Shown here: positions 23,666-51,824 of the stretch, in pieces
How the letters are laid out: each line of letters begins with the position of its first letter
Numbering within the stretch: position 1 is the first letter of the stretch
From: Candidatus Micrarchaeota archaeon
GTDB lineage: Archaea > Micrarchaeota > Micrarchaeia > Anstonellales > Anstonellaceae
Direction of reading: 5' to 3'
Assembly: GCA_026413965.1 (NCBI GenBank)
Contig: JAOAJY010000003.1
Span: forward strand, 27,727 to 91,726
DNA length: 64,000 bases
Translations under genes and position numbers: made by a program
Notes under the pieces: generated by a model
What the model saw: the letters and a program-made list of their open reading frames with translations, nothing else
What the model was told of the DNA's origin: nothing
The model's database searches: none

Positions 23666-23731
23666 GAATGAAAGGTTTTTATAGTTTGAAATGGAAGCTG
23701 CAAGCGAGGCGATTGCGTGCAATTTGGGAAG

Positions 23732-24559
23732 ATGGCTTTTGCTTTTGTTTTGCTGGTTTCCGCATTTGGCTTGGGGCATGCGCTTGAGATGGGAAGCTGC
23801 GCGGACGGCACTCCTTATGGAAAATGCTCCACCAAAAATCCAGGGCACTATTGCACAGGAAGCCCTCCAGCCCTCCAGCTTTACACCAACCTTTGCAAAT
23901 GCGAAGCTGTGCCAGGCTGGATAACCCAAGGCACAGGTGAGCAGGCAAACTGCGTCCAGGCAAAATGCGATGATGGGACCATGAGCGGAAGCTGCACGCC
24001 CAACAAGCCCAAGGTCTGCATAGGCGGCTCTGTTTACGCAGACAACGCAAGCAAGTGCGGATGCCCGCCCAACAAGAAGGTGAGCGCCAACGGCATATTT
24101 TGCGAAAGCATCCCCTGCAAAGATGGGGAATTTACTGTTGAGGAAGGCACCTGCTCTCCAAAAAAGGCGAAAAAATGCGTGGATGGGGCCCTTGTGGACA
24201 AGGCATCGGAATGCGGCTGCCCTGCAGGGCAGACCAGAATTGGAGAAAGCTGCGCAGTGGTGTGCTCTGATGGGACAAAGGAGGGAGAATGCTCAGCCTC
24301 CAAGCCAAAAGAGTGCCTGAATGGATATCTGGTTGACAATGCGGCAAAATGCGGCTGCCCAGAGGGAAAGGCAGCCCATGGGAAATACTGTGCTGATTCA
24401 GCAGTCAGCGGCGCAGCTGGAAGCGAGCTTCTTGGCTCAGCAGGAAGCGCAGAAGGGGCTGATGAGGAGAGCAGGGGCATAAGCCCGATTTCCTGCTGCT
24501 GCCTTCCAACCGCACTGATTGGCATAGCAGGGGCATTTGCCCTCTCCAGGCGGGGATGA
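23732..24559 (+). CDS. Secreted cysteine-rich four-repeat protein with C-terminal TM anchor
   Basis: ATG at 23732 gives the signal peptide MAFAFVLLVSAFGLGHA. Four repeats of C-x-DG-T...G-x-C-[ST]-xx-[KN]-P-x-x-C...KCGCP. About 27 Cys by hand count. Ends ISCCCLPTALIGIAGAFALSRRG. Confidence 0.8.
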   Translation: MAFAFVLLVSAFGLGHALEMGSCADGTPYGKCSTKNPGHYCTGSPPALQLYTNLCKCEAVPGWITQGTGEQANCVQAKCDDGTMSGSCTPNKPKVCIGGSVYADNASKCGCPPNKKVSANGIFCESIPCKDGEFTVEEGTCSPKKAKKCVDGALVDKASECGCPAGQTRIGESCAVVCSDGTKEGECSASKPKECLNGYLVDNAAKCGCPEGKAAHGKYCADSAVSGAAGSELLGSAGSAEGADEESRGISPISCCCLPTALIGIAGAFALSRRG

Positions 24560-36187: not shown

Positions 36188-37645
36188 TTGAGGGCTGGGC
36201 TTGCTTTTGCAGCTTTGCTTTGTTTTGCAGGCTTTGGATTCGCAGGATTGCTTGAAGACTTCATGGCAAAAAGCTTTGAGCCTGGCATGGAGGTTGAGGC
36301 AAAGCAAATTGCTTCTGGCAGCCATTACATAATAATTCTGGATGGGAAAGAGGCCTATTTGTTTGACAATTCGGAGGGCAAGCCTGTTTATGACCGCAAA
36401 AGAATCATAGGCATCCTTGAGGAAGGCGAGAAAAAGGCTGCAGGCTATGAGGACAAGAAAAAATTGGCCATGAGCCTGCCTGCCGCAATCAATGCCGCCA
36501 AAAACAAGACTGAAGCCCAATGCATGCTTTTGACTGGCACAGACATGCACGAATGCAAAGACAAGCAGACCTGCGTGCTTGCCTGCATGTCCAACCCAAA
36601 CTGCGCAACGCCGCTTTATTCTGATGGATTCTGGGAGGCTTTGCTTGACTGGAGCAGCGCAAGGAAAAGATATGCGGAGCTTTTGGCAAAGTACCAAGAG
36701 GGGCTTGAGGATGCATTGGGGAAGCCTGAGGCGATTGATGAGAAGACGGCGATAGTTTCAGAGCTTCAAAAAATTGCCCAAAACATTTCCCAAAACCCGC
36801 TTTTTTTGAACAGGACGGATGAGGGATGCAGCGGCGCAAAAGTGGCAAGAAGGTGCTATGAGTACTGCCCAAAAATAGACTATTCTGCTTCAAGGCTGCA
36901 GGAAGGGAAAAAGAGCTTGGAGGCAATCAAGGAAATTTTGCTTTCTGCCCAAAAGCAGGCAGAAAGGGCAGATGCCATCCTCAGCCAGAGCGCCAAGCAT
37001 GACGAATACCTAGCAAGGCGCATGAAAGATTTTGCTGAGCTTAGGGTGAAGCTGGCAAACAGTGTAAGAAAAGCCAATATGACATCAAAAGAGCTTGCTT
37101 TGAAGGTGAAAGATGAGGAAGTGGCTCCTGCTTTGAAGGACCTTGAAAATTACACAGCCAAAGTCATTGAAGCTGGGGATTCTGGGAGATACCGCCAGGC
37201 TTTCAGGATGGCTGAGGAGCAGCAGAGAAAATATGACGAGCTTAGCCGAAAGATGCAAGCCGGCTTGGAGAAGCACCAGCAGGCAATTGAGAGGATAGAT
37301 AAGGCGTCTGAAAAAATCAAAAAGAGCAGCTGGCTGCTTGGGAATGAAACTTCCTCTGAGCAGCTGGCAAAGCTTGAAGCCATGAGGCAAGAGCTTCTTT
37401 CTGCCCCTGCAACCTTGCAGAAGATAGCCGAGCTTGATGCGAAAGCAGCGCAGATAGAAAATGAAGTGAACTTGGCCATTTCCCAGAAGGCAACTGAGAT
37501 AGCTTCAGGAAACGAGTCCCTGCCGCCAGAGGCATTGAAAGAAGTTGCCTCAAGGCAGTTGGCAAAAGGCGGCGGGCTTCCCTGCCTTCCTGCAATCGCG
37601 CTGGCCGCAGTGGCCCTTGTGGCTTTTGCTTCAAGAAAGGATTAG
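36188..37645 (+). CDS. Secreted coiled-coil protein with C-terminal TM anchor
   Basis: TTG start after GAGGTGA gives the signal peptide MRAGLAFAALLCFAGFGFAG. A Cys-containing N-domain is followed by a long coiled coil. Ends GGGLPCLPAIALAAVALVAFASRKD. Confidence 0.7.
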   Translation: MRAGLAFAALLCFAGFGFAGLLEDFMAKSFEPGMEVEAKQIASGSHYIIILDGKEAYLFDNSEGKPVYDRKRIIGILEEGEKKAAGYEDKKKLAMSLPAAINAAKNKTEAQCMLLTGTDMHECKDKQTCVLACMSNPNCATPLYSDGFWEALLDWSSARKRYAELLAKYQEGLEDALGKPEAIDEKTAIVSELQKIAQNISQNPLFLNRTDEGCSGAKVARRCYEYCPKIDYSASRLQEGKKSLEAIKEILLSAQKQAERADAILSQSAKHDEYLARRMKDFAELRVKLANSVRKANMTSKELALKVKDEEVAPALKDLENYTAKVIEAGDSGRYRQAFRMAEEQQRKYDELSRKMQAGLEKHQQAIERIDKASEKIKKSSWLLGNETSSEQLAKLEAMRQELLSAPATLQKIAELDAKAAQIENEVNLAISQKATEIASGNESLPPEALKEVASRQLAKGGGLPCLPAIALAAVALVAFASRKD

Positions 37646-49880: not shown

Positions 49881-51824
49881 ATGGGTGAGAGAATGCGCCT
49901 GGGGATTTTTGCCTTGCTGGCTTTGGTTTTTTCCGGAAGCATTTGGGCTGGCTTCACATTTTTGTATGAGCTGAACGGAAGCAGCCAGGAGAATCCGTCT
50001 GACGAGAGCCTGCTTTTCGCCACCCCAAGCGGAGTTTTCCATTCTGGCGGAAAGCTTTATGTCTCAGATTCAGGAAAAGGGGCTTTGTATGTCTTCAACG
50101 GGACAAAGCGCGTCAATGTTATGGTTTCCTTGGGGGGATCGGCGCTGACAGGGCCTCTGAGAATGGGGCAAGACCCGCAGGATGCCCAGCAAACTATATA
50201 CATAGCGGATGGCAACTCTGGCAGGATAAAGACTTATGCAGGCAGCGGCTCTGAGATTGATGTGTGGAACCCAAGCTCCAACATGGAGCGCCCAAGCGGG
50301 ATTGCCTTTGACAGCCAAAACGCATACATCGCAGACATGGTGGGCGGAAGAGTGTATGCCTACTCAAAAAGCACCAAGGCATTCTCAAAAATAGCGGTTG
50401 AAAGGGGAGAGTCTGACGGCCTGCTTTCCTCTCCTGCGGATATAGAGAAATACGGAGACTTGTTTTTCGTGTCAGATTCAGGCAAAGGGCTGGTGTTTGT
50501 GTATGACTCCAACTTCACCTACAAATATGCCATAGGGAGAGGGAAAGGGGGAGTGGTTCTCAAATCCCCAAGAGGCATCCATGCCCATGACGGGATGCTT
50601 TTTGTGGCTGACGCCACAGGCAACAGGATTGTGGTTTACACGCTCACCGGCTATCCGATTGACTCTTTGGGCTCTGCGAACCTTTCTTATCCGGAAGACG
50701 TATTTGTCTCAGGAAGCACTGCATATGTGGCAGACAGCTTCAACCGGAAGGTGAGAATATACAACTTCAGCAAGCCTGAAGGGAACCAAGAGACCTTGGG
50801 CTTGATAAAAGCCGCCAACCAGTCGGTGCAGGAGCTTTACGAGCTGCGCAAAATAGCCCAAAAGCTTGGCTTGGCTGAGGCAGGCTCCTCTCACGAAGGG
50901 AAGCTTGAGGAGGCTCTTGAGGAATACAGAAACTACCAATTCACTGCTGCCTCAAAAATAGCTGAGAGGGCAAAGGAGGAGGCCGAGAATGAAAAGAAAG
51001 AGATTCGCCAGTCCGCAAGCGTCCGCATAAAGCAGCTGGTCAAGCAGGCAAAGGATTACCTTGCGCCTGCCAGGAAAAAGGCTGAAAATGAGCCTTCCCT
51101 TGCTGCTCTCCTTTCGGATTTTGACAGGAAAAGCGCTGATGCCGAAGCAAAGCTTTCTGCTGGAAATTACATGCAATCTGCAGAGCTTGCGCTGTCCCTT
51201 TCGCCCATGGCAGAAAGCATAAGGAAAAAAGCGGAGGAGCTTGAAAGCAGTCAGGCGTCTGCCTTGCGCAACCAGACGCAAGCTTCATTGCTGATGGAGC
51301 TTGAGGGCATGAGCGCAAGAATATCTGCCTTGCAGGCGAAAGCCGAAAAATACCGCCAGGACATCAACCTCACAAATGCGCAAAGGCTTGTCCGGCTCGC
51401 CAACTCCTCAATTCTGGCAGGGGATAGCGAGGCTGCAGGCTCCTCTTTGAGGCTTGCGGAAGTGGATGTGCGGGTCAATGAGGGGATGCTGGAGAAGAGG
51501 GTTTTGGAGATTGAGTCCGCGCTTGCCAACTTGACTGCTTTTGAGACTATGCTGAATGCATCCGCAGCAAAGCCTGTGCTTTTGCCGCCTGACTTCAAGC
51601 AGGAAAGGGAGCTGATTGCGCAGGCAAGAGAAAGCGTCTATGGCAACCCGCAAATGGCAGTGCAGATGGGCAAAAAGGCAGCGGAGGATGCTGAGGGGAA
51701 AGCAAAAGATGCGCAAAGGATCTCGGTTGCCGCTGCGGCTTTGCTGGTGATGTTTGGCATGATAGCTGCGCTTTTCATTGCTTTTTTCCTCCATATTCGC
51801 GGAAAGAGGAGAGGTAGGCTTTAG
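49881..51824 (+). CDS. Surface protein: NHL-repeat beta-propeller + coiled coil + C-terminal TM
   Basis: Signal peptide MRLGIFALLALVFSGSIWA. Six NHL-like blades (LYVSDSGKGALYVF, IYIADGNSGRIKTY, AYIADMVGGRVYAY, FFVSDSGKGLVFVY, LFVADATGNRIVVY, AYVADSFNRKVRIY). Then about 300 aa of coiled coil, then the TM VAAAALLVMFGMIAALFIAFFL followed by RGKRRGRL. Confidence 0.8.
   Translation: MGERMRLGIFALLALVFSGSIWAGFTFLYELNGSSQENPSDESLLFATPSGVFHSGGKLYVSDSGKGALYVFNGTKRVNVMVSLGGSALTGPLRMGQDPQDAQQTIYIADGNSGRIKTYAGSGSEIDVWNPSSNMERPSGIAFDSQNAYIADMVGGRVYAYSKSTKAFSKIAVERGESDGLLSSPADIEKYGDLFFVSDSGKGLVFVYDSNFTYKYAIGRGKGGVVLKSPRGIHAHDGMLFVADATGNRIVVYTLTGYPIDSLGSANLSYPEDVFVSGSTAYVADSFNRKVRIYNFSKPEGNQETLGLIKAANQSVQELYELRKIAQKLGLAEAGSSHEGKLEEALEEYRNYQFTAASKIAERAKEEAENEKKEIRQSASVRIKQLVKQAKDYLAPARKKAENEPSLAALLSDFDRKSADAEAKLSAGNYMQSAELALSLSPMAESIRKKAEELESSQASALRNQTQASLLMELEGMSARISALQAKAEKYRQDINLTNAQRLVRLANSSILAGDSEAAGSSLRLAEVDVRVNEGMLEKRVLEIESALANLTAFETMLNASAAKPVLLPPDFKQERELIAQARESVYGNPQMAVQMGKKAAEDAEGKAKDAQRISVAAAALLVMFGMIAALFIAFFLHIRGKRRGRL

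Follow-up and report, generated by a model that had tools for sequence, protein, structure and literature searches.

How are the exported proteins of a host-dependent archaeon held at the cell surface? The question is raised by two genes in a 64,000-nucleotide stretch of DNA from a Candidatus Micrarchaeota archaeon (the whole stretch analysed, hereafter the window), which covers positions 27727-91726 of contig C22 in a 770-kb, 28-contig assembly that is 87% complete. The genes encode unrelated secreted proteins, one containing Cys-rich modules (family A) and one largely helical (family B), whose last residues follow the same order: a Cys at the outer edge of a short membrane helix, the helix itself, and a basic end. 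We find that this tail is a conserved tripartite element common to unrelated exported proteins. We propose, by analogy, that it is a Cys-type tripartite C-terminal sorting or anchoring signal of the functional class that includes MYXO-CTERM and CGP-CTERM, a reading that we hold with confidence and doubt in about equal measure. Because these organisms depend on host-cell contact, the manner in which their surface proteins are attached bears on host interaction.

Conservation of the tail

Both window proteins end as an earlier note on this DNA had described. Translation gives the Cys, helix and basic end at 24485-24559 in family A (PISCCCLPTALIGIAGAFALSRRG, then the stop codon; a longer reading of the same end is ...SPISCCCLPTALIGIAGAFALSRRG) and at 37568-37645 in family B (GGGLPCLPAIALAAVALVAFASRKD, then the stop codon), and both proteins, the family A protein with its 280 residues included, begin with a hydrophobic signal peptide. 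A scan of all open reading frames (ORFs) of the 770-kb genome (G000) for C-[LIVMF]-P followed by a helix and a basic end recovered only these two among real genes. With a looser anchor scan, a third tail gene was found at C23:22502-24646 (family C). It encodes a secreted protein of 714 amino acids with a transglutaminase core (PF01841, E=6e-31) and an end composed of Cys-Pro, a helix and Arg-Arg (...FCPVAFAVFASALAIAIARR; longer reading ...SSRFCPVAFAVFASALAIAIARR). Families A, B and C are three unrelated exported proteins, and each has exactly 16 residues from the Cys, the last one in family A, to the first Arg, with the stop 2-3 residues later. Counted from the Cys, the tail is 19-20 residues long in all three (Cys + 16 + 2-3). 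The presence of an N-terminal signal peptide and extracellular-type domains in all three proteins excludes tail-anchored (Get3-type) insertion.

The evidence that carries the finding comes from relatives. Each of the three tail proteins served as a query against 60 related genomes (of the same genus, family or order), and the C-terminal ends of the top matches were inspected; counts of models and orthologues are given over 61 genomes. Family A orthologues occur in 48 of 61 and family B orthologues in 46 of 61. A C-terminal membrane helix is present in 77 orthologues across the three families, and in 68 of these a Cys stands at its outer edge. The distance from this Cys to the first charged residue is 14-18 residues in 64 of the 68 tails, with a mode of 16, and 13, 19, 21 and 22 in the other four. 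A Pro lies within three residues of the Cys in 59 of the 68. Beyond the helix, 0-9 residues remain in the Cys-bearing orthologues (n=68), compared to cytoplasmic tails of 11-42 residues in the nine Cys-less ones, with zero overlap between the groups. These non-overlapping lengths fit a disposable signal in the first group and permanent anchors in the second. The stretch after the Cys or Pro that lacks Pro, charged and polar residues has a median length of 13, and is mostly 19-25 in the Cys-less orthologues. Upstream of the Cys, the linker is unalignable among orthologues; Ser, Gly, Thr, Asn and Pro are abundant in it, and N-glycosylation sequons occur at 3-9 times the background frequency. Judged by sequence, the conservation of the Cys next to a linker that cannot be aligned is strong evidence for the tail, stronger than the count within one genome.

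That count is low. Only three tail proteins occur in this genome, which alone is statistically weak (a rough chance estimate of ~0.006 for 3 of ~12 anchored secreted proteins having a Cys at one common position), and a loose whole-genome rule also picks 25 further ORFs, probably spurious, all but one of 160 amino acids or fewer. One interpretation of these figures is that the window holds two ordinary membrane anchors that each happen to have a Cys. The conservation data contradict it, as the Cys is kept across three families with spacing and end length fixed while the neighbouring sequence is unalignable. In addition, Cys clusters 13-19 residues before the first charged residue in the C-terminal anchors of secreted proteins of this genome and of a relative, G060, but not in another relative, G058. 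We consider a chance origin exceedingly improbable. Recent copying of the tail between the two window genes is likewise excluded, because only 31 of 81 nucleotides are identical between them.

What recurs among the orthologues is the Cys at a fixed distance from the first charged residue, often with a Pro or Gly close by. In family A, the tail reads [LIF]-S-C-C-C-L-P-[TA]-A or S-C-x-C-C-P-[AS]-A, a pattern still seen in orthologues of only 30% overall identity and outside the genus; SCCCLP[TA]A or CxCCP[AS]A is present in 22 of 22 full-length orthologues, a Pro follows the Cys at +1 to +3 in 22 of 22 tails, and C260, C262 and P264 are all invariant in alignments A1 and A3. In family B, 28 orthologues terminate in a membrane helix; 22 of them have the edge Cys and the other six have long cytoplasmic tails. 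A Pro stands at +1 to +3 in 21 of the 22, and the signature varies widely (LPCLPA, PPCAPA, VCLPAA, GCALPI, SCAPAA, YCPLPI, LPCPAA, SCPVSV, KCTLPF, SCPFSI). Family C is as variable (PPCPLA, EGCILA, QGCPLA, GTCPVS, SLCATS, PFCLSG, SICMPL, PKCMTG). The earlier note had proposed a tripartite tail common to unrelated exported proteins, with the Cys as its invariant residue, and both proposals are borne out by the orthologues of families A, B and C. Its proposed C-L-P signature fails because the Leu is not conserved: it varies freely, as the family B variants and ends such as CCPAA and CGAAF illustrate. Neither were more C-L-P proteins found in the genome, nor a sortase-type gene of the archaeosortase, exosortase or rhombosortase kinds, but a third Cys-tail protein and one CPBP gene, described below, are present.

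Three relatives were assembled from fetched pieces and scanned by the same tail rule: G060 and G058, both of another family (f9) in the same order, and G028, of a sister genus within the same family. G060 has about 10 further secreted proteins with Cys tails (for example TSCCSGFALLAALILVSSKIS, SPACGAAFILLGALYGAFRRSI and LCGILFVFPLALAGSFIFARVVR), G058 has none, and G028 has two, which are its family A and B orthologues. Sequence flanking fetched loci yielded two additional tail proteins, one of which belongs to G059, of another family (f8). In the tails of these further families, Gly, Ala or Ser commonly follows the Cys instead of Pro. The general element is thus a Cys, a small or helix-breaking residue, ~13-15 hydrophobic residues and a basic end. 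A profile hidden Markov model (HMM) built from 64 orthologue tails and used in a six-frame search found family A only and is unfit for a census in other genomes because it missed this genome's own family B tail.

In three family B orthologues from the same genus (L011, L012 and L014, in G022, G017 and G021), the Cys tail is replaced by a 19-residue helix and a Pro-rich cytoplasmic tail (RSARRAPPSAPSPPSPTQ). The mode of anchoring seems to have changed recently within this genus.

Comparison with known sorting signals

C-terminal signals that contain a Cys have been catalogued only recently. MYXO-, JDVT-, Synerg- and CGP-CTERM are Cys-bearing tripartite signals, each paired with a glutamic intramembrane protease related to CPBP and Rce1, named myxosortases (Haft, bioRxiv 10.1101/2023.06.07.544157). 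The sole archaeal example is CGP-CTERM, a signal of 20 residues with an invariant C-G-P and a Thr/Ser-rich linker upstream, reported from Thermococcales only (Haft, bioRxiv 10.1101/2023.06.07.544157). A Micrarchaeota version would extend the class to DPANN archaea.

CGP-CTERM and its protease MrtA (NF040590) are similar to the system described here in many respects. Both are archaeal and have a tail of ~20 residues in which an invariant Cys abuts a short helix without a spacer, with a Pro nearby and a basic end. Both tails also follow a Ser/Thr-rich linker, are found on several unrelated secreted proteins in each genome, and occur in genomes with a CPBP-family gene. The differences lie in the residues after the Cys, Gly-Pro in CGP-CTERM compared to C-L-P, C-P, C-x-L-P or, in other relatives, C-[GAS]-G here; Gly at +1 occurs in 0 orthologues of families A, B and C. 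They also lie in the lineage, Thermococcales as opposed to Micrarchaeota, and in the enzyme, as CGP-CTERM has its own MrtA, of which the CPBP protein here is not an orthologue, and as some tails here persist in relatives that lack CPBP. The CGP-CTERM model TIGR04288 had no match at E<=10 in hmmscan of the tails or whole proteins, none at E<=1 in a six-frame search of this genome, and reached its cut-off of 21 bits in 0 of 61 genomes in six-frame search. Below the cut-off, its best score on a family A orthologue was 15.4 bits (in G019), and a different protein scored 18.8 bits. The tails thus resemble CGP-CTERM but fall outside its model.

MYXO-CTERM of Myxococcus xanthus is also tripartite, with an invariant Cys that is sometimes doubled (GCGC there, CCC or CC here). 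Its protease MrtX cuts Cys-dependently, also in Escherichia coli, and in the working model the Cys is lipidated first and the protein is then cut on the C-terminal side of the Cys (PMC11980579). This order of lipidation followed by a glutamic intramembrane cut by a CPBP protease is the one that we propose here. MYXO-CTERM differs in being bacterial and longer, in its Gly-Cys motif, in having dozens of substrates per genome compared to three here, and in its link to type II secretion to an outer membrane (PMC11980579), which this archaeon lacks. PGF-CTERM, processed by archaeosortase A in Haloferax volcanii, shares with our tails an archaeal tripartite layout, surface proteins as substrates, a glycosylated linker and a lipid anchor after removal of the helix, the glycosylation being probable and the lipid anchor proposed here. 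It differs in its Pro-Gly-Phe signature without Cys and in its enzyme, a Cys-protease-type archaeosortase, which was not found in this genome.

Neither the tails nor the complete proteins scored at or above the cut-off of any C-terminal sorting model in Pfam or NCBIfam. The weak matches covered the helix portion only, with 13.5 bits against a cut-off of 30 for VPXXXP-CTERM and 14.5-16 bits against 23.5 for NPXTG. The tails contain no PGF, PEF, PEP or Gly-Gly motif and no LPXTG motif with a spacer; no search was made for the sortase gene that goes with the latter. As a signal in no existing catalogue, the candidate of the earlier note stands in that no catalogued C-terminal model detects it at cut-off, but the Cys-bearing tripartite class itself had already been published (bioRxiv 10.1101/2023.06.07.544157, PMC11980579). 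The tail belongs to no catalogued family and would be a distinct version of the published Cys-type class. Because no searched NCBIfam or Pfam release detects it, the mature forms of many Micrarchaeota surface proteins are probably misannotated, being taken for membrane-spanning when they would be lipid-anchored.

Candidate processing enzymes

Archaeosortases, exosortases and rhombosortases, which the earlier note had in mind, act on tails with this tripartite layout, and the only model matches, to VPXXXP-CTERM and NPXTG, are weak and confined to the helix. The genome argues otherwise. The archaeosortase/exosortase models PF09721 and TIGR04178 have no match in it at E<=1, TIGR04178 reaches its cut-off in only one of 61 genomes, and the motifs of these systems are missing from the tails, as described above. 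Rhomboid (PF01694) was found neither in this genome nor in any of the 23 genomes of the genus, and is present in G058, which has no tails. Unless the missing 13% of the assembly encodes a very divergent enzyme, this frame is refuted for the present genome, and we regard it as very improbable.

A CPBP protease is the sole candidate found. PF02517 identifies exactly one gene, C11:73676-74434, which lies outside the window and encodes 252 amino acids (77 bits). Its motifs EExxxR, FxxxH and HxxxN are intact and invariant over 12 orthologues from the genus, the remaining sequence being divergent. Membership in the CPBP family is assigned from the Pfam match and these catalytic motifs, because a PDB chain sequence search with the protein returned nothing at E<=1. 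It matched 13 CPBP models of NCBIfam, each of them below cut-off; several Mrt models are among these, and the myxosortase core model is one of its best specific matches. All 23 genomes of the genus have PF02517, as does G060 with its ~10 tails, and it was not found in the tail-free G058. Family C follows the same division: its proteins end in the Cys tail in g1, g4 and g6, genera that have CPBP, and in a plain anchor in g2, g3 and g7, which lack it. A small phyletic profile, of genes that this genome shares with G060 and that G058 lacks, holds more than 50 entries, CPBP and two MarC-family proteins among them; it cannot single out an enzyme because it contains one negative genome only. The link between CPBP and the tails is no more than suggestive, and the protein is a putative processing enzyme.

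Several observations, in addition to the small number of tails in this genome, weigh against a signal processed by CPBP. PF02517 was not found in 11 of 11 genomes of the sister genera g2, g3, g5 and g7 (confirmed locally for G028), and at least five CPBP-less genomes (G024, G026, G028, G033 and G034) retain the Cys tail of family A, family B or both. G028 has two tails with neither CPBP nor PrsW, a second protease family. The CPBP gene adjoins no tail gene, and no protease gene is adjacent to any tail gene. The CPBP protein scores below every myxosortase cut-off and has no match to MrtA (NF040590) at E<=1. The contrast between tail-rich G060 and tail-free G058 is one of single genomes. Finally, lipidation, cleavage and the identity of the enzyme are all steps that we infer.

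Alternatively, the tail could be a cleaved Cys-dependent signal whose enzyme is not CPBP but a PrsW-family protease of ~500 amino acids, perhaps encoded in the missing part of the assembly, or another enzyme. Of the family's 37 genomes, a total that counts this assembly, 33 have PrsW (PF13367); it occurs in 20 of 23 genomes of the genus, in 10 of 11 CPBP-less genomes and in four of the five CPBP-less genomes shown to keep tails. Pei et al. are said to have placed it, in 2011, in the same Rce1/APH-1 clan as CPBP. In this assembly, which is incomplete, PrsW was found neither by the Pfam model nor by a local profile, and the genes found on either side of PrsW in relatives are separated here by 28 kb in which no PrsW is encoded. 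Nor was it found in G060 or in families f8 and f9, yet G060 has ~10 tails and G059, of f8, has a tail protein. These data argue against PrsW as an enzyme common to all tail-bearing genomes. We think PrsW or another enzyme in the place of CPBP distinctly unlikely. The mixed pattern of proteases makes this lineage useful for asking whether CPBP is obligatory for such signals, and which enzyme lipidates the Cys.

Three side observations concern the surroundings of these proteases. At C11:72049-74434, the CPBP gene and the start of kae1 share 4 nucleotides, and a gene for a MarC-family membrane protein lies 66 nucleotides downstream, all on one strand; MarC homologues occur in the tail-bearing G060 and G028 and not in the tail-free G058. 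The distributions of CPBP and rhomboid are nearly complementary within the family: the 23 genomes of the genus all have CPBP and all lack rhomboid, CPBP is in 0 of 11 and rhomboid in 10 of 11 genomes of g2, g3, g5 and g7, and in g4 and g6 together CPBP is in 3 of 3 and rhomboid in 2 of 3. At C21:51797-52429, a membrane protein of 210 amino acids with a HEMAH motif is encoded directly downstream of a CDC48-like AAA ATPase, and in relatives from g2-g4 its slot holds a PrsW-family protease of ~500 amino acids.

Proposed route to the surface

We propose the following sequence of events for the Cys tail as a sorting or anchoring signal. The N-terminal signal peptide would route the protein through Sec. 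The protein would then be held in the membrane by the short C-terminal helix, whose basic end lies in the cytoplasm, which would place the Cys at the outer membrane face beneath a probably glycosylated linker. The side chain of the Cys could next be lipidated, perhaps by the machinery that serves the N-terminal lipobox proteins of this genome. Finally, a glutamic-type intramembrane protease of the Rce1 clan, for which the CPBP protein is the candidate, would cut after the Cys and remove the helix and basic end, so that the lipid alone anchors the protein.

The lipidation step has a counterpart in the same cells. We scanned four genomes, including this one, at full or near-full coverage (81-100% of the assembly) for canonical N-terminal lipoboxes (L-[AS]-G-C) and found 8-14 proteins bearing one in each. 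This genome has 12-14, for example C22:2277-3185, C28:11348-12439 and C26:3435-4757, a sizeable share of its small secretome. Because all four genomes encode such proteins, lipidation of Cys at the outer membrane face would be available. The archaeal lipoprotein lipidation factors AliA and AliB are reported to occur in DPANN (PMC12462473). In N-terminal lipoproteins, as in our tails, a Cys at the outer face beside a hydrophobic helix is the proposed lipidation site. The differences are the L-[AS]-G-C lipobox, which the tails lack, and the topology, which is inverted in the tail, where the helix follows the Cys at the C-terminus.

Another interpretation is that the tail is a permanent, uncleaved single-pass anchor and that the Cys serves in disulfide cross-links with surface proteins, the S-layer or a host partner, in metal binding, or in a lipidation that reinforces the helix. 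The persistence of tails in CPBP-less genomes, and in G028 with neither protease, is readily understood in this way, as are the lack of linkage between protease and substrate genes and the two or three adjacent Cys residues of family A, a protein already full of disulfides. It would also require no processing. The form of the tail points in the other direction. The end beyond the helix is always 0-9 residues long compared to 11-42 in Cys-less orthologues, the hydrophobic stretch is unusually short for an anchor with a median of 13 after the Cys or Pro, a Pro or Gly stands at the start of the helix, and the layout equals that of signals whose cleavage has been observed in experiments. Moreover, a cross-linking Cys needs no fixed distance to basic residues in the cytoplasm. 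We rate a permanent anchor as somewhat unlikely.

If the tail is a lipidated and cleaved signal, a broader scenario can be considered. We speculate that lipid anchoring on a C-terminal Cys could be common throughout Micrarchaeota, and perhaps in other DPANN archaea, with AliA/AliB-like lipidation and with interchangeable Rce1-clan proteases, either CPBP or the large PrsW type. It would then represent a second, independently evolved archaeal branch of the myxosortase type, with a relaxed signature in which a Cys and a helix-breaking residue precede a helix of constant length, and could be the chief means by which these wall-less symbionts attach adhesin-like proteins to their single membrane. 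Taken as a whole, we consider this scenario unlikely.

Features of the window proteins

The features of the window proteins are listed in Table 1, together with an NHL-type protein that serves as a comparison case and that, as the earlier note had recognized, ends in a plain anchor without C-L-P. The true start of the family A gene may be the ATG at 23732.

Table 1. Positions in the window of the tail-bearing genes, the parts of their tails and the comparison protein
Feature	Position	Strand	Basis
Family A gene; secreted protein of 280 amino acids with four disulfide-rich modules, disordered linker and Cys tail	23717..24559	+	ORF
Family A, Ser/Gly/Thr/Asn-rich disordered linker before the Cys, residues 231-259	24407..24493	+	pLDDT <50 and composition
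Family A, signature cysteines Cys260-Cys261-Cys262, outer edge of helix	24494..24502	+	Translation, alignments
Family A, helix-breaking Pro264, two positions past the last Cys	24506..24508	+	Invariant in alignments A1 and A3
Family A, hydrophobic segment TALIGIAGAFALS, 13 residues	24509..24547	+	Translation
Family A, basic end Arg-Arg-Gly and stop codon	24548..24559	+	Translation
Family B gene; secreted protein of 485 amino acids with Cys-containing N-terminal domain, long helical region and Cys tail	36188..37645	+	ORF
Family B, signature cysteine Cys466	37583..37585	+	Translation, orthologues
Family B, Pro468	37589..37591	+	Translation
Family B, hydrophobic segment AIALAAVALVAFAS, 14 residues	37592..37633	+	Translation
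Family B, basic end Arg-Lys-Asp and stop codon	37634..37645	+	Translation
NHL-type protein of 647 amino acids, comparison case with conventional anchor: 26-residue helix and RGKRRGRL, no Cys	49881..51824	+	Translation

A scan of the family B protein against Pfam and NCBIfam found no family at cut-off. For family A, an AlphaFold2 model has a predicted local distance difference test (pLDDT) score of ~90 for residues 30-225 and below 50 for residues 231-267, followed by the terminal helix. The 30 residues upstream of the Cys contain 18.5% Ser and 20% Gly, and the linker has 3.0 N-x-S/T sequons per 100 amino acids compared to 0.34 in the proteome, suggesting that it is probably a glycosylated stalk. 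The family A ectodomain (23717-24406) consists of four modules of ~45 amino acids with the pattern C.DGT..G.CS..KPK.C..G.LVD.A..CGCP.G. When the family A model was used for a fold search of the PDB, nothing matched at E<=0.001, and its resemblance to Cys-rich repeats of the EGF, TNFR and furin types was vague.

Public records with close family A relatives are labelled Candidatus Micrarchaeota or Micrarchaeia, apart from two contigs, JBAZMO010000062.1 (L230) and JBAZPI010000071.1 (L245), filed as metagenome-assembled genomes of a "Patescibacteria group bacterium" and a "Gracilibacteria bacterium". One of their proteins has 62% identity to family A, and both contigs are probably mis-binned Micrarchaeota.

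Cys tails also mark a small gene cluster in G060. At C1:416338-417365, three tandem genes encode small Cys-rich secreted proteins (91-121 amino acids) that all have terminal tails of the type CC-[SPG]-G-[FS]-A-(L/A)-LL... The gene for a metalloprotease-like tail protein of 746 amino acids, which has no orthologues within f9, lies beside a fourth paralogue of these genes, at C1:49533-49796.

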